Source of the DNA: an uncultured Syntrophobacterales bacterium
GTDB lineage: Bacteria > Desulfobacterota > BSN033 > WVXP01 > G020346125
DNA length: 64,000 bases
Assembly: GCA_964346945.1 (NCBI GenBank)
Contig: CAYFXL010000001.1
Span: 626-64,625, forward strand
Direction of reading: 5' to 3'
The notes below the pieces were generated by a model. That model was not told where the DNA came from and did not search any database. It saw only the letters and a list, made by a program, of their open reading frames with translations. The position numbers were made by a program, and so were the translations under genes. Positions 42-62,486 of this stretch are shown piece after piece; the first letter of the stretch is position 1; each line of letters begins with the position of its first letter.

Positions 42-114
42 TGGGCCCACCTGGGTTCGAACCAGGGACCTACCGGTTATGAGCCGGTGGCTCTTCCAAC
101 TGAGCTATGGGCCC
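42..114 (-). tRNA. tRNA-Met (anticodon CAT; elongator type, could alternatively be lysidine-modified tRNA-Ile2)
   Basis: 73-nt cloverleaf on the minus strand: acceptor GGGCCCA/TGGGCCC, D arm GCTC-AGTTGGAA-GAGC, anticodon arm ACCGG-CTCATAA-CCGGT, T arm CCTGG-TTCGAAC-CCAGG, discriminator A. The G1:C72 pair and the lack of a GGG/CCC anticodon stem argue against an initiator. CCA is not encoded. Confidence 0.9.
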
Positions 115-126
115 ACAATAATCTCA

Positions 127-156
127 ATACTATCGATAATTCACCTGAGCTGTCAA
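127..156 (-). promoter_or_regulatory. sigma70-type promoter for the tRNA gene
   Basis: Minus strand reads TTGACA (151-156), an 18-nt spacer, then TAGTAT (127-132). This puts the start a few nt upstream of tRNA position 1 (114). Confidence 0.5.
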
Positions 157-191
157 GCTGCTTGAGACAGAGCTCTGGGAAATCGGAAAGA

Positions 192-312
192 GAAGCTTTG
201 AGCGCGAATTAAGATTTTTCCAGTACCGATTCTTACCGATTCTTAGTGAGGCGAACTCTGGAATGCTCCGATAAATATTTTCACCAGCGATGAGCGAGTT
301 TTTCAGACCTCT
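192..312 (+). repeat. Dispersed intergenic repeat, copy A (centre deleted relative to copies B and C)
   Basis: Shares aagctttgagcgcgaattaagattttt, gattcttagtgaggcgaac and aaatattttcaccagcgatgagcgagtttttcagacctctc with copies at 53762-53936, 62023-62205 (minus strand) and 36343-36475. Confidence 0.75.
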
Positions 313-2061
313 CTAAGATTCGATGAAGCTCTTCAATCGTTTACTCCGGCTGGGGTGACGAAGTTTCCTTAAAGCCTTTGCCTCGATCTGCCTAATCCTT
401 TCCCGAGTGACGTCAAAGTCTTGGCCCACTTCTTCCAACGTATGGTCATATTTTTCTCCGATACCAAACCTCATCCTCAAAACCTTTTCCTCCCTTGCAC
501 TTAACGTGGCCAGGACTTTCTGCGTCTGTTCCACAAGATTGATACTGATCACCGATTCCGCCGGGGAAAGCCCCTGTTTATCCTCTATGAAGTCCCCAAG
601 ATGGCTATCCTCTTCCTCCCCAATGGGAGTCTCCAAGGATATCGGCTCTTTTGCGATCTTCAAGACCTTCCGCACCTTATCCAAAGGCATGTCCATTTTG
701 TGAGCGATCTCCTCCGGCGTGGGTTCCCGCCCAATCTCCTGCACCAAATATCGAGAGGTGCGAATCAGTTTGTTAATGGTCTCGATCATGTGCACCGGAA
801 TACGAATTGTCCTAGCCTGGTCGGCTATAGCGCGGGTTATGGCCTGACGAATCCACCAGGTAGCATATGTGCTGAATTTGTATCCCCTTTGATATTCGAA
901 TTTGTCCACAGCCTTCATTAACCCGATGTTACCCTCCTGGATCAAATCCAAGAATTGAAGGCCTCGATTCGTGTACTTTTTGGCAATGCTCACGACTAAT
1001 CTCAAATTCGCCTTCACCAGTTCGCTCTTGGCCTCATTGGCCTCCTCCACCCCTGCTTCAATGGCCCTCATTGCCTCTTTAAGCCTACCAGCGGAAAGCC
1101 CAGACTCCATCTCAACCAGCCTCACCTTCTTCCGAGTATTTCTCAGCAGTCTCTCCATTTCCAGGTAATCCCCGCGTTTCAGGCGGATCTTTGCCCGTAG
1201 CTCATCCTCCTTGGTTACCCCGTTTCTTTTCATCCTGAGATACGTCTTGGCCGCTCTGATGGAAATCCCCTTCTTCTTTGCATTGTCAACCAACTCCTTT
1301 TCTACCCTCTCGATACGGGCCAAGAAATCCTTCAATATTTGGACGATCCTATTGACCTGTTTCTCCCTGAGGTTAATGGCCCTAACGGCCAGAATCAGCT
1401 CCCTCATCCTCCCCTGTATCTCTTCCCTTACCCTCCTTCTCTGAATCTCATCTTTGTTTCCCTCAGATGATTCCTGAAGTAACCCCTCGATCTCCCCGTT
1501 TATCCACCTGATCCTGTTGATCGATTCCAAGATCCTCTTCCGCTGAAGCTCCTCCTCTCCAACACTGACCTCATCCTCATCGATATTTTGGGTAATTTCC
1601 TTAACGCCTATCTTACCCTCCCTCAAATCCCTTCCAAGGTGAATCAACTCCCTCAGTGCAATGGGACAATTGAGAACCACTTCGAGAATTTCCCGTTTCC
1701 CCTCCTCTATCCTCTTGGCGATATCAACTTCCCCATCCCTGGTAAGCAAGGATACCGAACCCATCTCCCTCAAATACATTCTGACGGGGTCGCTGCTTCT
1801 CCCATATGAATAGGGATCCAAGGAATCCGGCTCCTCCTCTTCTTCGAACTTACCAACCTCCTTGTTCTGGCTTACCTTCGAGGCCTCATCAACTACCTCG
1901 ATATCCATCTCGTCGATCATCATCAATACTTCATCCATTTGGTCTGACGAAATCATATCCTCGGGCAAATTATCGTTCACGTCATCGAAAGTTAAAAATC
2001 CCTTTTCCTTGCCGAGGGAAATTAACCGCTCAAATCCGTTCGATTTTCCTCCCTTGCCCAT
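313..2061 (-). CDS. rpoD: RNA polymerase primary sigma factor (sigma70)
   Basis: 582 aa. Region 2 string [38 protein letters not shown]; region 4 [28 protein letters not shown]; acidic N-terminal region. Confidence 0.97.
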
Positions 2062-15824: not shown

Positions 15825-16301
15825 TCACGTCTCTTGACCTTTATAGGAGGTGTTTCCCTAACCTGCTAGTTCTATGGAAAATCATTTTTTCATGGGAAAT
15901 CACCCTCGTTCAGCGGATTACGCTCAGGGAAGAGGGTTTTCCCCATAAGCCTTGGAAATTCCAGAACTATCCCTCATTCATCATCTTAGTGGTATTGTAA
16001 ATCGAGGAGGATTGATTGTCAATTTTCTCGCGATGGGGAAATCCGCCGAAAAATCCCCTTTTGGGCCTCCTATTTTCGAGAAAACCGAGGGGACGAAGAC
16101 TTCATAAAAAAAATTTATTTAAATTCAATAAGTTAAAATGTAATTTCAATATAATTTTAATTGTTGTTATTATAGTATCCCGTAATTATTGATATTTTAT
16201 GATTGAAAATATTTCATAAATTTACCAATTAGGAAAGTCAACCCCCCAAGAATTCGAAAACTATCGAAATTATAAGTAGTTACAAAAAGTAAAAAAATCC
16301 C

Positions 16302-36016: not shown

Positions 36017-36319
36017 ATGGAAGAGAATCGTCTACTGCAAGAGTTGGAGGAAATTGCGGAGAAGCTCTCCATTTCCGTCCAGTACGACGATTTGATGGGA
36101 ATGGATTTCAGGGTTAGGGGTGGGCTGTGTAGGCTCAGGGGAATGAATGTAATCATCATGGACAGGAGAGCGTCCCCAAGGGAGAGGATAGATCTCTTGG
36201 CCGGGGCGCTTCGCCAGTTCGATCTCTCTTCCATGTTCATAAAGCCATATATTCGTCTCATCATAGGACGTGCTTCACGGAGCGACGACAAAGCAATTCC
36301 TGACGAAGGGACCTCATAG
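36017..36319 (+). CDS. Hypothetical protein (100 aa)
   Basis: ATG with AAGGA upstream and balanced composition. The overlapping minus-strand ORF (35977-36330) is Ser-rich, typical of an antisense shadow. Confidence 0.5.
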   Translation: MEENRLLQELEEIAEKLSISVQYDDLMGMDFRVRGGLCRLRGMNVIIMDRRASPRERIDLLAGALRQFDLSSMFIKPYIRLIIGRASRSDDKAIPDEGTS

Positions 36320-36342
36320 AAATCTTTCAAATACGAGGAAAA

Positions 36343-36475
36343 TAAGCTCTGAGTGCGAATCTATTACATAGGCAAATGATAACGGGCACAGTCTAACCGC
36401 ATGACTCCAACACTTCAGAACTGCAACTGCAATGGTTGAGCAGCGAGGAGCGAGGCCTTCAGAGGTCTCTCATAT
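36343..36475 (+). repeat. Dispersed intergenic repeat, copy D (conserved ends, divergent centre)
   Basis: 5' module aagctctgagtgcgaat. 3' module ttgagcagcgaggagcgaggccttcagaggtctctcatat matches the copy B 3' module tttgagcagcgaagagcgagttttttagggatctcatat. Confidence 0.7.
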
Positions 36476-36519: not shown

Positions 36520-37227
36520 GTGAAAATTGAAAAGATCTCCTTTTCAAGCCATGGGCAGGCGGTAGTAGGGTCGCTTCATCTGCCGGACATTGAAAAGTCT
36601 CCCTGCGTTATTTCCTCCCACGGGCTCTTCAGCAACAAGGATAGCCAAAAGTATGTCTCACTCGGGGATCAACTTTCCCGAAAGGGGATATCCCTCCTCA
36701 GGTTCGACTTCAGGGGCTGCGGTGAAAGTGAGGGAAAAATCTCGGAGAGCACCGTATCGGACCGGTTAGAGGATTTGACCATGGCCATTGGCTTCATACG
36801 ATCGCACCCCCGGATCGGCCCCCGAACTGGCCTCATGGGAAGCAGCTTAGGCGGCTACATCGCCCTGATCAAGGCCGCGGGGGAGGAAGATATTCGGGCA
36901 GTGGTGACATGGGCAACTCCATGTACCCTTTTTGGCCTTGCGGAGAAGAGGGGAAAGGGAGAAATGGTCTCCCTGGGGAACCAATTCTTCCGCGACATAG
37001 AAGTTCACGACCTCACCTCTGCCCTGGGGAAGGTGGTTAACTGCCTGGTGATTCATGGGGATCGCGACGAACTGGTTCCCGCAGAGCAAGCCCGTACTAT
37101 ATATGAACAGCTCAATGAGCCAAAAAATATGGAGATCATCGAAGGTGGTGATCACAGGCTGACCAATCCGGATCATCGGGAACACGCCATTCGAATGACG
37201 GCCGAGTGGTTTGCGAGATACCTGTGA
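36520..37227 (+). CDS. Alpha/beta hydrolase (dienelactone hydrolase / S9-like)
   Basis: Nucleophile elbow GSSLGG; C-terminal IHGDRDELVP and GGDHRL (Asp/His of the triad). The track start at 36436 (TTG) lies inside repeat copy D, so the GTG at 36520 (VKIEKISF) is preferred. Confidence 0.8.
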   Translation: MKIEKISFSSHGQAVVGSLHLPDIEKSPCVISSHGLFSNKDSQKYVSLGDQLSRKGISLLRFDFRGCGESEGKISESTVSDRLEDLTMAIGFIRSHPRIGPRTGLMGSSLGGYIALIKAAGEEDIRAVVTWATPCTLFGLAEKRGKGEMVSLGNQFFRDIEVHDLTSALGKVVNCLVIHGDRDELVPAEQARTIYEQLNEPKNMEIIEGGDHRLTNPDHREHAIRMTAEWFARYL

Positions 37228-51057: not shown

Positions 51058-51177
51058 GGTAACCGAAAGGCCAAACCATCCGTGAGGGTGAGACGGAAAG
51101 CCACGGGTCTAGCGGGGGAGATCCCCGAGCTTCCGAGATTTGACATCATAGATTTCTCTAGATAGCCGGGTTGCCGA
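51058..51177 (+). promoter_or_regulatory. GEMM-I (c-di-GMP-I class)-like riboswitch aptamer
   Basis: P1 is GGTAACC (51058-64) pairing with GGTTGCC (51169-75). GGCCAAACC is followed by hairpin CATCC-GTGA-GGGTG (GNRA loop), then GACGGAAAGCC, a long P3 (51104-51168) and GGGTTGCCGA. These strings parallel GGGCAAACC / GACGCAAAGCC / GGGUUACCGA of the V. cholerae Vc2 aptamer, as I recall it. Confidence 0.6.
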
Positions 51178-51203
51178 AGTGAATGGGTAACTCGGCTTTT
51201 TTT
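51164..51203 (+). terminator. Intrinsic terminator (riboswitch expression platform)
   Basis: AGCCGGGTTGCC pairs with GGTAACTCGGCT (12 bp, 2 G-U), with a 10-nt loop and a T7 tract. The 5' arm contains the P1 3' strand. The 3' arm repeats the GGTAAC of the P1 5' strand. Confidence 0.8.
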
Positions 51204-52868: not shown

Positions 52869-53747
52869 TTGAATCCCGAGGAACTTTGGCGAGAGGTGAA
52901 AAGGCTGGGGAGGGAACTCGAGGCCCTTCGCCATGAGGTCATGGCCCTCAGGAAAAACCTACCGGCGCAGACCCCGATAAAAAATGTCCTCAAGGAGAGA
53001 GGGCTTAAGGTCTTCCGGCAGAATCCCGCCGAAAAACTTCTCTTCCCCCAGGAAATCTCTCCCGGGATGAAAACCCGGTTCTACGAATTGTTGAAACGTT
53101 ACTCGTTCAGGCTCTTCCTGAGAGACATGACAAAGAAAAGCCAGGGCTTTCGAATCGGGGATCTGGTGCGATACGTCTCACCCGAAGTCGCTGACCAATA
53201 CATTCAGTTTCTCTTGTTAGTGGACAGCATCGAGGAGATAGGGCGGGGCGAGTTCCGGATTCGAAATACCGCCATCACCAGTTTCGGACCCACCCTCGAA
53301 TGGTTTGTAGCGGAGATCTTTAAGAGAGAGTTCGCCTCTCCAGCCATATACGGGGTTCATTTTAAGAACACCAAGTCGGGGGGAGACTTTGACGTCATCG
53401 CTCGATGGGGAAGAAGGCTGGTCTACGTAGAGGTAAAATCTTCACCGCCTAAGGGGATCGAGATCAATGAAGTCAGTGCCTTCTTTTCTCGCATTGATGA
53501 TCTGATACCAGATGTGGCAATGTTCTTCAACGATACTCAATTGAGGATGAAGGACAAGGTTGTAGTCCTCTTCCAGGAGGAGCTTGCGAACCGTTACGGG
53601 CTTGAAGCTGATCAGACCCATCCCGTGATGAGACTTATGGACGAATTATTTCACATTCATGACCGTATCTTTATCGTCAACAGCAGGAAGGATGTGGTCC
53701 TCAACCTCGGCACATGTCTGAATCATTTCCTTCGAGAGAGAATATAA
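52869..53747 (+). CDS. Hypothetical protein: coiled coil, winged-helix-like region and PD-(D/E)xK nuclease-like C-domain
   Basis: GGDFDVIARWGRRLVYVEVKSS fits D...(D/E)xK. The TTG start immediately follows the PflX-like stop codon. No family recognised. Confidence 0.55.
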   Translation: MNPEELWREVKRLGRELEALRHEVMALRKNLPAQTPIKNVLKERGLKVFRQNPAEKLLFPQEISPGMKTRFYELLKRYSFRLFLRDMTKKSQGFRIGDLVRYVSPEVADQYIQFLLLVDSIEEIGRGEFRIRNTAITSFGPTLEWFVAEIFKREFASPAIYGVHFKNTKSGGDFDVIARWGRRLVYVEVKSSPPKGIEINEVSAFFSRIDDLIPDVAMFFNDTQLRMKDKVVVLFQEELANRYGLEADQTHPVMRLMDELFHIHDRIFIVNSRKDVVLNLGTCLNHFLRERI

Positions 53748-53761
53748 AGATCTGTGAAAAA

Positions 53762-53936
53762 GGAGCTCTGAGCGCGAATGAAGATTTTTTCGTAACCATT
53801 CTTAGTGACGCGAAACGGCCGCAAACTCAATGTTTGAGGCTGAAAGGCGAGTTTTGAGTTTGCAGTGAAGCAAACTTTAGAATGGTCGAAAAAATATTTT
53901 TGAGCAGCGAAGAGCGAGTTTTTTAGGGATCTCATA
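53762..53936 (+). repeat. Dispersed intergenic repeat, copy B (full length)
   Basis: Collinear with minus-strand copy C over about 175 nt, e.g. cattcttagtgacgcgaaacggccgcaaactcaatgtttgaggctgaaaggc versus cattcttcgtgaagcgaaacggccgtaaatccaatgtctgagactgaagggc. Its ends are shared with copies A and D. Confidence 0.8.
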
Positions 53937-54156
53937 TGGGCTAGGAAGACTGCAAATCCCTTGGAGGACCTCAATTGTCTTTCAACTCATGAGCTCATCC
54001 AATGTTGCGGGAAAGCCTGAATATATCCCATCCATGAGTGCTGCTCTATGTGACCACATACATATTTGCATAGGGGAAAGGATAAAGACAAATTCTCAAT
54101 ACCGATTTCTAAACCCTAAACAAATGCAAAGCACTGACGATCAAATGACCAATACG

Positions 54157-56732: not shown

Positions 56733-57209
56733 TATAAAATCCGCCGTTCGAGTTTCCCCTTTTTCTTGGGGGAACTCCGTTGTTCCTGTGCGTGATCTGC
56801 TGGACGAAGGTGAACAGGTTTCGTCGTGAGTCTTCGACTCTGATTTCCATTTGGCCCTTCACGGTTATTCCTCAGCCTCCTACCTCTCAGCCTTGACCTG
56901 CTGGGGGGTAACAGGCCACGAACCATAGGGCGAAGGAACGAGGAAGTCCCGCACTGAAATAGCTCATTCTCAATAAAATGAAAAAGTCAAAAAATATTTC
57001 CTATAAAACCCAGGAACCTTTGGAATCCCCCCCGAATCTTGCAGGGGCCCTAACCCACTATGGAGGAGGGTTTCAAGAGCTGCCGTACTGTACAACTTTT
57101 GGGAAATGACCTTTCAGGGGGGGCTGTATTGGGGTAAAAAGGGGGTCAATCCGCAAAGGAGAGAAAAGAACTGGTCAGGGGGACCTAAGAATCCCACTCG
57201 GTCTTCTCT

Positions 57210-61937: not shown

Positions 61938-62022
61938 CTTTACCACGGCACCCCCCATAGCAAATTCTCTTCTTCGTAGGCGAACACCGTTATCCCTTCG
62001 CTTCCATGCTTCGTGGTCTATT

Positions 62023-62205
62023 GATCGAATCCCCTTTCTCCCACTGAAAAGAATTCTTGACCATTCTAGCGTTCGCTCCACTGCAAAGAGCGCCAGGGCG
62101 CTACTTCTTTCCCTTCACTTGCCCTTCAGTCTCAGACATTGGATTTACGGCCGTTTCGCTTCACGAAGAATGGTTATCTAAAATTCTTTCATGTTCGGTC
62201 CAGGG
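62023..62205 (-). repeat. Dispersed intergenic repeat, copy C (full length, inverted orientation)
   Basis: The minus strand is collinear with copy B: ...ataaccattcttcgtgaagcgaaacggccgtaaatccaatgtctgagactgaagggc...tttgcagtggagcgaacgctagaatggtcaagaattctttt... Confidence 0.8.
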
Positions 62206-62432
62206 AACTCGGCCAAAACCTGGTTTCGAAAGTGACCTTGGCGCTTCGCAGTTGGTTGTTTTTCATCCTTATCCTTTGAACCCTCTAAAGGGCTGGCTTT
62301 CTCCTTCCGTTGGGCCCGAGCTCAGGATCGAAGACTCGGGACAAGCTCTGCTCAGGCTCGATGGGTACCCCAGTTCTCCAATGAATTCGGTCACGGACAA
62401 CGGTGTTCTCGAGAGACTCAGGAAATTTCTAT

Positions 62433-62486
62433 ACCCTATATATTGTATTATTCTTTTTTGATACTACAATATATAGGGTTTGTCAA
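62433..62486 (-). promoter_or_regulatory. nrdD promoter with two NrdR boxes
   Basis: Minus strand has TTGACA (62486-62481), 17 nt, TATCAA (62463-62458). Box 1 is CTACAATATATAGGGT (62464-62479, filling the spacer). Box 2 is ACCCTATATATTGTAT (62433-62448). Box centres are 31 bp apart. Both resemble acaCwAtATaTwGtgt. Confidence 0.7.

Follow-up and report, generated by a model that had tools for sequence, protein, structure and literature searches.

A probable new miniature inverted-repeat transposable element family, with some copies at a fixed distance from -35 hexamers, in uncultured sediment Thermodesulfobacteriota

TnGBS and ISLre2 (p-MULT 3) and the ISKra4 group (p-MULT 4) are Mutator-like, promoter-targeting elements: in more than 20% of their junctions a sigma-A/sigma-70 -35 box follows the element at a short, fixed distance of 13-17 bp downstream, with duplications of 8-9 bp, and the ISKra4 group, which includes an insertion sequence (IS) from an uncultured Desulfobacterium, has the promoter on either side and nearly perfect inverted repeats (IRs) (Guerillot et al. 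2014, PMC3942029). Among smaller elements, the Tn3-derived miniature elements with inverted repeats (TIMEs) carry 38-bp IRs homologous to Tn3-family IRs and are flanked by 5-bp (sometimes 6-bp) A+T-rich duplications (PMC4133298). Here we describe a dispersed repeat (family 1; family 2 denotes a second, separate repeat family) in a 64,000-nt stretch of DNA from an uncultured Syntrophobacterales bacterium (assembly GCA_964346945.1, contig CAYFXL010000001.1, positions 626 to 64,625), which as a whole is referred to as the window. Family 1 very probably constitutes a previously undescribed miniature inverted-repeat transposable element family (MITEs, as generally defined in PMC4133298), with sister subfamilies and nested partners, rather than a family of small RNAs (sRNAs).

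Because three independent lines of evidence converge, namely target-site duplications (TSDs), filled versus empty orthologous sites, and MITE-like decay and nesting, we attribute the spread of family 1 to DNA transposition. An initial annotation, made from the sequence alone, had recognized the repeat at four sites, and a family profile built from 14 full-length copies (nhmmer) and run on the window returned exactly four matches: 169-313 (copy A; E-value 4e-32), 36319-36469 (copy D; 3e-22), 53739-53933 (copy B; 1e-52), and 62045-62189 on the minus strand (the core of copy C; 9e-14). The conserved 5' and 3' blocks reported there are exact at three sites each, all on the plus strand (AGCTYTGAGYGCGAAT at 194, 36345, and 53764; CAGCGANGAGCGAG at 285, 36441, and 53905), alignment bore out that copy A is copy B minus its centre and that copy D has a different centre, and the gene context, consisting of rpoD, NrdD, an alpha/beta hydrolase, and an M50 peptidase, was as described. 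The copies and their boundaries are as follows (TSDs are unstranded):

168-313, plus strand: copy A, a centre-deleted family-1 putative MITE between the rpoD stop and the tRNA promoter (nhmmer and TSD boundaries)
163-167: left TSD of copy A, TGAGA (partner 314-318)
314-318: right TSD of copy A, TAAGA (T314 and A315 are part of the rpoD stop codon)
36319-36469, plus strand: copy D, family-1 ends with an unrelated interior (nhmmer, perfect 5-bp TSD, empty site in relative L048)
36314-36318: left TSD of copy D, TCATA (partner 36470-36474)
36470-36474: right TSD of copy D, TCATA
53747-53933, plus strand: copy B, a full-length family-1 putative MITE without the 9-nt TGGAAAAAC insert of the left end
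53747-53762, plus strand: left terminal inverted repeat (TIR) of copy B, AAGATCTGTGAAAAAG
53918-53933, plus strand: right TIR of copy B, GTTTTTTAGGGATCTC
53742-53746: left TSD of copy B, ATATA (partner 53934-53938)
53934-53938: right TSD of copy B, ATATG
about 62015-62237, minus strand: copy C, a member of a diverged subfamily with ends GGTCACTTTCGAAACC ... GATCAATAGACC (boundaries set by eye)

The initial annotation had suggested looking for target-site duplications, and duplications of 5 bp, with no further extension, are present. When the 5 nt flanking each tip were compared in 17 full copies, with mismatched pairings and shifted windows as controls, the two sides agreed on average at 3.41 of 5 positions, with four or more agreements in 10 copies, as against means of 1.44 for mismatched pairings (3% with at least four matches) and 1.18 for shifted windows. 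Perfect TSDs flank copy D (TCATA) and the copies in relatives L022 (TTGAG) and L033 (TAAGA); copy A is flanked by TGAGA/TAAGA and its ortholog in L033 by TAAGA/TAAGA, and copy B by ATATA/ATATG. Relatives also supply the corresponding empty sites. The B site is empty in L041 and L040, where it reads ...GAGAGAGAATATAG-GTCGGGAAGG...; the A site is empty in L046/L047 (RpoD 80%), reading ...GAATAT-TAA-CAGC-TTGACA-N17-TATACT...tRNA, and is occupied in relatives with RpoD identities of 85-93%; and the D site runs uninterrupted in L048 as ...CCC-TCATA-TCATTGG.... L048 has an independent family-1 copy (100-190) in the opposite orientation 11 nt upstream of this empty site, which suggests a local insertion hot spot before the hydrolase gene. 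Upstream of nrdD, a full family-1 copy is present in L041 only, with AATGC duplicated. Of the three options that the initial annotation had offered (an sRNA family, a protein-binding scaffold, or a new mobile miniature element), the last is very probably the right one, in keeping with the TIRs, the 5-bp TSDs, and the empty sites, and an sRNA family is not borne out.

The absence of TIRs had been counted as an argument against a MITE. However, the true start of the element lies about 25 nt further 5' than had been drawn, its ends had been missed, and a 16-nt TIR (GAGATCTCTGAAAAAC at the left tip, GTTTTTCAGAGATCTC at the right tip) becomes clear only after relatives are aligned. The first and last 16 nt of the consensus form a perfect inverted repeat, both tips are present in about 20 independent copies from related metagenome-assembled genomes (MAGs) and metagenomes, and pairing within the TIR is 80-100% Watson-Crick per position across the 17 copies. 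Aligned over the related MAGs, the full unit reads 5' GAGATCTCTGAAAAAC-(TGGAAAAAC)-GAGCTCTGAGCGCGAAT, variable interior, GAGCAGCGAAGAGCGAG-TTTTTCAGAGATCTC 3', and its consensus has five parts:

Part 1, left outer module: GAGATCTCTGAAAAAC-TGGAAAAAC-GAGCTCTGAGCGCGAAT
Part 2, left inner module: TAAGATTTTTTCG.TAACCATTCTTAGTGAAGCGAAACGG
Part 3, variable centre
Part 4, right inner module: GCAGTGAAGCGAACTTTAGAATGGTCGAAAAAATATTTT
Part 5, right outer module: GAGCAGCGAAGAGCGAG-TTTTTCAGAGATCTC

Each copy keeps about 45 nt on the left and about 33 nt on the right, and between these ends stand optional inner modules and a freely exchangeable centre; because the remainder of the outer modules and the inner modules pair imperfectly beyond the TIR, the whole unit forms a long hairpin. 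Copies range from 79 to 410 nt (the element in the window is about 150-220 nt), and the size variants, solo ends, and nesting (e.g., L004, L028, L018) are those expected from the decay of MITEs. The outer modules stand alone in L004 (79 nt); the centre is missing from L028 (136 nt) and copy A; a foreign centre occupies copy D and L007-L009; and L033 and L018 are composites of 380-410 nt (410 nt in L018). This turnover, by internal deletions (copy A), centre replacements (copy D), and nested insertions of other repeats (copy C, L018, L033), accounts for the appearance of the family as a mosaic of degenerate units. Only short, non-conserved open reading frames (ORFs) overlap copy B, which is 90% identical to L002, and length variants differ by non-multiples of three.

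Several smaller features accompany these modules. A promoter-like TTGAGT-N18-TAGAAT (53854-53883, plus strand) lies in the conserved right inner module and is directed out of the right end, and its TAGAAT is kept in most copies. In L022 (1269-2133), an IHF/HU-like gene stands between family-1 copies at 1269-1440 and 1937-2133, an arrangement resembling a composite transposon. Short TGCAGTG or TGCGGTG words with an 8-nt period occupy, in variable number, the interiors or flanks of several copies:

L008, 3600-3650: TGCAGTG/TGCGGTG run
L007 and L024, interior: TGCAGTG/TGCGGTG runs
L018, 8650-8710: TGCAGTG/TGCGGTG run
L039, 10900-10970: TGCAGTG/TGCGGTG run
L042, 10920-10950: TGCAGTG/TGCGGTG run

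When 185,579 species-representative genomes were scanned for exact occurrences of the 3' block, MAGs bearing the labels Syntrophobacterales or Pseudomonadota gave seven true copies, three further matches were due to chance, and the same scan over JGI metagenomes gave 20 true matches (about 12 distinct), placing family 1 in at least four MAG lineages and 20 metagenome contigs. Contig WVZG01000430.1 of MAG GCA_011772545.1 matches the window at 100% identity, and the closest named organisms by RpoD (about 65% identical) belong to the Thermodesulfobacteriota; as far as sampled, family 1 is confined to a clade of uncultured sediment Thermodesulfobacteriota. The description of the repeat as previously unclassified was upheld by searches of Rfam, plasmids, viral contigs, and the literature: at the gathering threshold, Rfam recognizes only a tRNA and a c-di-GMP-I riboswitch in the window, a BLAST search of PLSDB plasmids with the consensus and a pattern scan of IMG/VR viral contigs gave no match, and the searchable literature, queried by sequence strings, held no matching paper. 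The riboswitch aptamer (RF01051, 59.8 bits, E 3.5e-9, with a 45-nt insert) lies at 51060-51178 on the plus strand. A genome-wide uptake or binding signal built on TGARGCGAA was also considered and rejected, with four occurrences against 1.3 expected and unconvincing enrichment outside the elements.

Family 1 is thus small and non-coding, bears TIRs and fixed-length TSDs, and occurs as dispersed copies with presence/absence polymorphism. Several observations weigh against reading it as a MITE family. A transposase gene bounded by the same TIRs was not found in the roughly 0.5 Mb of loci examined, in plasmids, or in viral contigs; for MITEs, a related autonomous element with the same ends is a corroborating rather than a strictly defining feature. 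Several TSDs are imperfect (1-3 of 5 matches). Nothing points to recent movement: at copy B the window is identical to two other assemblies, and the insertion of copy A is old, being common to lineages whose RpoD proteins are 85-93% identical, over which span the ends at this locus are conserved. Finally, the arms contain two near-invariant tandem G.A/A.G positions, and G-U exceeds A-C by 2:1, neither of which a purely selfish DNA model explains; like the conserved ends at the A locus, they could be the mark of an additional, strand-specific constraint for which such a model has no need.

From the combination of TIRs with TSDs of fixed length, we infer an enzyme of the DDE type: a transposase encoded elsewhere in the genome would bind both ends and insert the element through a 5-bp staggered cut, which would generate the 5-bp direct repeats. 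That this enzyme is a Tn3-type transposase, and family 1 a TIME derived from the Tn3 family, seems unlikely. The 5-bp, mostly A+T-rich duplications are as reported for TIMEs and Tn3-family transposons (PMC4133298), and the left end weakly resembles the 38-bp IR of Tn21 (CTCTGAAAAACTGGAAAA versus CTCAGAAAAC-GGAAAA, then TAAG). In alignments of the ends with the Tn21 and Tn3 IRs (verified in PLSDB), with significance assessed against shuffles and with Tn21 versus Tn3 as a clearly significant positive control, the left end scored 3 (shuffles -7.5 +/- 3.6), a value reached by 0.55% of shuffles, but the right end was similar to neither IR and scored at the shuffle mean. Moreover, the tip reads GAGA rather than GGGG, there is a 3-nt offset between the common block and the tip, and neither a Tn3-type transposase nor a res site was seen near any copy. 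Because the left end is only marginally similar and the right end not at all, TIME membership or a Tn3 origin is not supported.

A second property of family 1 is the position of its ends relative to promoters. Among 33 unique ends, 10 have an exact, outward-directed TTGACA 10-12 nt beyond the tip (eight of them at exactly 11 nt), as compared to a chance expectation of about 0.024 ends; one further TTGACA lies at 27 nt, and there is none in the opposite orientation. The 11-nt spacer comprises the 5-nt duplication plus 6 nt, and because its sequence is not conserved, it belongs to the flank and not to the element. The possibility that the adjacent TTGACA is itself part of the element was rejected, as the spacer is unconserved and the hexamer is present at the empty sites of relatives. 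Comparison with relatives shows that the promoter is older than the insertion at two loci, those of the tRNA (TTGACA-N17-TATACT) and of nrdD, with its NrdR-box-like palindromes. In the window, the first of these comprises:

42-114, minus strand: tRNA gene
127-156, minus strand: sigma-70-type tRNA promoter (-35 TTGACA at 156-151, -10 TAGTAT at 132-127)

The -35 hexamer of this promoter lies 11 nt past the left tip of copy A, and the promoter is kept as TTGACA-N17-TATACT in L033, in L036, and in the empty-site relative L046. Judging from the empty A site, the original spacer between rpoD and the tRNA -35 was only TAA-CAGC. The insertion of copy A gave rise to the duplication of T(C/A)TTA, and a new stop codon, TA+G, is completed by the element's tip base, such that C313, the last base of copy A, is the first plus-strand base of the rpoD stop codon (313-315); the copy at this junction has been retained for a long time. 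The same tip effect ends the ORFs upstream of copies B and D: A53747, the tip of copy B, is the last stop-codon base of ORF 52869-53747. Contact between the element and stop codons thus follows from a very short original spacer (TAA-CAGC-TTGACA) and a tip base that completes TA-G. The copies had been considered strictly intergenic, which fails for A and B, whose tips each provide the final stop-codon base, and for copy C, which lies within the nrdD 5' untranslated region (5'UTR). Near copy D, the 100-aa ORF at 36017-36319 (plus strand) has a stop codon made of TA from the duplication and G from the tip, and without copy D it would be 17 codons longer; the start of the hydrolase gene is at 36520 and not at the TTG (36436) that lies within copy D. 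In L044 (4749-5150), which with an RpoD identity of 74% is the most distant relative, the stretch from the rpoD stop to the tRNA -35 contains a TIR-like remnant of 15 nt, GTGTCTCTGAACGGC, and an ORF with a 23S-rRNA-IVP domain stands between the tRNA promoter and the tRNA.

In the mechanism that we propose, integration would be aimed 6 bp upstream of sigma-70 -35 hexamers, or would be guided by the sequence of the hexamer as such, and this placement would keep the element out of genes and core promoters. Two points qualify this proposal. A plausible -10 or a co-oriented gene accompanies only about seven of 12 adjacent hexamers, so that the hexamer itself may be the target, and the proximity to -35 boxes could partly reflect insertions that were tolerated in very short spacers. 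On balance, we lean slightly towards true targeting of -35 hexamers or promoters. A more specific version, which we put forward only tentatively, is that a transposase generating 5-bp duplications recognizes the sigma-70 -35 hexamer or bound RNA polymerase and integrates 6 bp upstream in either orientation; this would make it a further, independent promoter-targeting lineage alongside the Mutator-like TnGBS, ISLre2, and ISKra4 elements, and the first seen in the form of a MITE that occupies many promoter-upstream positions in a clade of uncultured sediment Thermodesulfobacteriota. Its ends may have been co-opted as upstream promoter or terminator modules, given the long retention of the copy at the rpoD-tRNA junction.

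The same positions might be expected of a host-selected intergenic cassette, combining a bidirectional intrinsic terminator with an upstream promoter element, that was spread and homogenized by recombination and not by transposition. A T run follows the outer stem on both strands, copies A, B, and D begin at stop codons, copies end 11 nt from -35 boxes, and at the rpoD-tRNA junction the ends were kept across lineages with RpoD identities of 85-93% while the interior was replaced. We nevertheless regard this account as decidedly improbable: fixed 5-bp duplications of unrelated flanks are a signature of transposition and not of recombination, L004 has a canonical terminator of its own just upstream of its minimal copy, the empty-site relatives have no substitute terminator, and the contact with stop codons is explained by the short original spacer and the tip base.

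Copy C, which had been described as a full-length copy on the minus strand, is indeed a real copy on that strand, but it is not a plain full-length one, being a diverged subfamily member nested in another repeat. It shares its inner modules and centre with copy B (core 62045-62189) and has an additional hairpin insert; the core of copy B (53781-53892, plus strand) and copy C (62054-62188, minus strand) are 82% identical over 72 + 34 nt. Because the diverged outer modules GGTCACTTTCGAAACC...GAGTTCCCTGGACCGAAC ... GGGGATTCGATCAATAGACC are common to copy C, L018, and L005, copy C represents a complete member of a sister subfamily, which also occurs in those two relatives. The surrounding features are:

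61950-62430, minus strand: composite insertion in the nrdD 5'UTR, a family-2 repeat carrying copy C (compared with L041, L042, and L040)
62481-62486, minus strand: -35 TTGACA of the nrdD promoter, followed by N17, TATCAA, and two NrdR-box-like palindromes

The composite, which has the inverted family-2 ends GAGAACACCGTTGTCC ... GGATAACGGTGTTC, is placed after the NrdR boxes and before the nrdD start (61946). L042, the simplest relative, has the nrdD promoter, a pair of NrdR-box-like palindromes, the ribosome-binding site, and the ATG in direct succession, whereas in the window nested repeats amounting to about 450 nt separate the NrdR boxes from the nrdD ATG (61946-62486, minus strand). L040 has the same family-2 wrappers around another interior, and neither L041 nor L042 has such an insertion; in L041, a family-1 copy lies 12 nt upstream of the nrdD -35 hexamer. 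Copy C is predicted from this arrangement to be transcribed as part of the nrdD 5'UTR, and it is nested mobile DNA, not a conserved riboswitch.

Family 2 itself occupies 56760-56960 (minus strand) and 62300-62430 (plus strand) in the window, 2390-2620 in L007, and 7900-7960 in L033; its common strings are GTTACCCCYCAGCAGGTCAAGGYTGAGAGGT and GGACAACGGTGTTCTCG...CTCAGGAAA, it recurs in leaders, it nests with family 1 in both directions, and it has no match in Rfam. Weaker look-alikes of family 1 had been noted at 15925-15960 and 56950-57000, but neither matches the profile, and both resemble or border family 2; the string at 15920-15960, ACGCTCAGGGAAGAGGGTTTTCCCC, resembles the family-2 end GCTCAGGGACAACGGTTTTC and not family 1.

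The predicted transcription of copy C bears on whether family 1 is instead a family of structured non-coding RNAs, either sRNA genes or cis-regulatory leaders, whose functional product is the long hairpin with its two tandem G.A motifs. The plus strand of copy B folds at -61.8 kcal/mol (z -3.8; other strand -47.9), G-U pairs outnumber A-C pairs by 55 to 25, the tandem G.A/A.G positions are near-invariant, copy C is sense-oriented within an apparently transcribed 5'UTR, and the conserved right inner module contains the promoter-like TTGAGT-N18-TAGAAT. However, copies A and D fold no better than shuffled sequences (z -0.2 and -0.05), copies B and C gave only noise against Rfam even at E <= 10, and among 683 scored pair cells (518 Watson-Crick, 55 G-U, 25 A-C, 85 other) there are only about four compensatory changes. 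The centre is freely replaced or absent, copies stand in either orientation relative to flanking genes, and the TSDs and empty sites indicate insertion of DNA; an RNA family is therefore a very improbable explanation. Under the transposition model, a transcribed hairpin would influence termination or the stability of the mRNA, if at all, only incidentally. A C/D-box or k-turn reading of the tandem G.A positions (weak SNORD58 match) was rejected, as the host is a bacterium, a 3-nt bulge is lacking, and the order of the boxes is wrong.

A repetitive extragenic palindrome (REP) or REPIN-type element moved by a REP-associated tyrosine transposase (RAYT; Y1, IS200/IS605-like) acting on single-stranded hairpins can scarcely apply, for although family 1 is a multi-copy palindromic hairpin between genes, and its strand-asymmetric G-T versus A-C bias would suit the folding of single-stranded DNA, it is 150-200 nt long with 16-nt perfect TIRs and 5-bp TSDs, no GTAG-type head or REP-like unit was seen, and REP/REPIN and IS200/IS605 elements produce no target duplication. 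Integron attC sites, XerCD/dif-like sites, retrons, IS200/605 ends, and omega RNA were likewise rejected, as their core motifs are absent and TSDs are present.

For work on this clade, the practical consequence is that blocks of 150-450 nt in its MAGs, including the long nrdD leader, are to be treated as mobile DNA and masked, instead of being mined for sRNAs or riboswitches, and that ORF ends at such blocks can be artificial because the tip base of the element completes stop codons. The nested mosaic copies illustrate the remodelling of intergenic regions and 5'UTRs in compact genomes, which may affect rpoD termination, tRNA transcription, and nrdD expression. In addition, with its insertions 6 bp upstream of -35 hexamers, family 1 provides a data set made by nature. 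If the targeting is true, it would extend to a different cut geometry a property that is rare among prokaryotic transposons and otherwise seen in TnGBS, ISLre2, and ISKra4, and it would offer a handle for finding the responsible transposase.

Compared with the named families of bacterial MITEs (Correia/NEMIS of Neisseria, ERIC, RUP, and BOX), family 1 is likewise small, non-coding, multi-copy, and mostly located between genes, and it shares with them TIRs, target duplication, hairpin-forming transcripts, long and short forms that arise by internal deletion, and modular interiors. Its sequence, however, is unrelated, its host clade is one of uncultured Thermodesulfobacteriota, and its spacing to -35 hexamers is fixed at 11 nt; and whereas Correia, ERIC, and RUP elements duplicate TA, family 1 duplicates 5 bp of varied sequence. 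With REP/BIME (bacterial interspersed mosaic element) and REPIN sequences it has in common that it is palindromic, abundant, extragenic, and mosaic, but REP-type elements lack a signature of TIRs plus TSDs and consist of RAYT-mobilized units of 20-40 nt with a conserved GTAG head. TIMEs resemble family 1 in their 5-bp A+T-rich duplications, lack of an ORF, length of hundreds of base pairs, long imperfect ends, and composite or mosaic forms; only the left end of family 1, and not the right, is weakly similar to a Tn3-family IR. TnGBS, ISLre2, and the ISKra4 group share with family 1 the insertion at a fixed distance upstream of -35 boxes and a similar gap, about 6-8 bp, between duplication and -35, and the ISKra4 group also has the promoter on either side and near-perfect IRs. 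The family-1 duplication is 5 bp and not 8-9 bp, however, its -35 spacing is 10-12 bp and not 13-17 bp, and those elements are autonomous ISs or integrative and conjugative elements, whereas family 1 has the form of a MITE with no transposase linked to it in the sequence examined. Family 1 is therefore an element of a well-known kind, the MITE, and what is unusual about it is the combination of a fixed -35 spacing with a 5-bp duplication and its long retention at the rpoD-tRNA junction.

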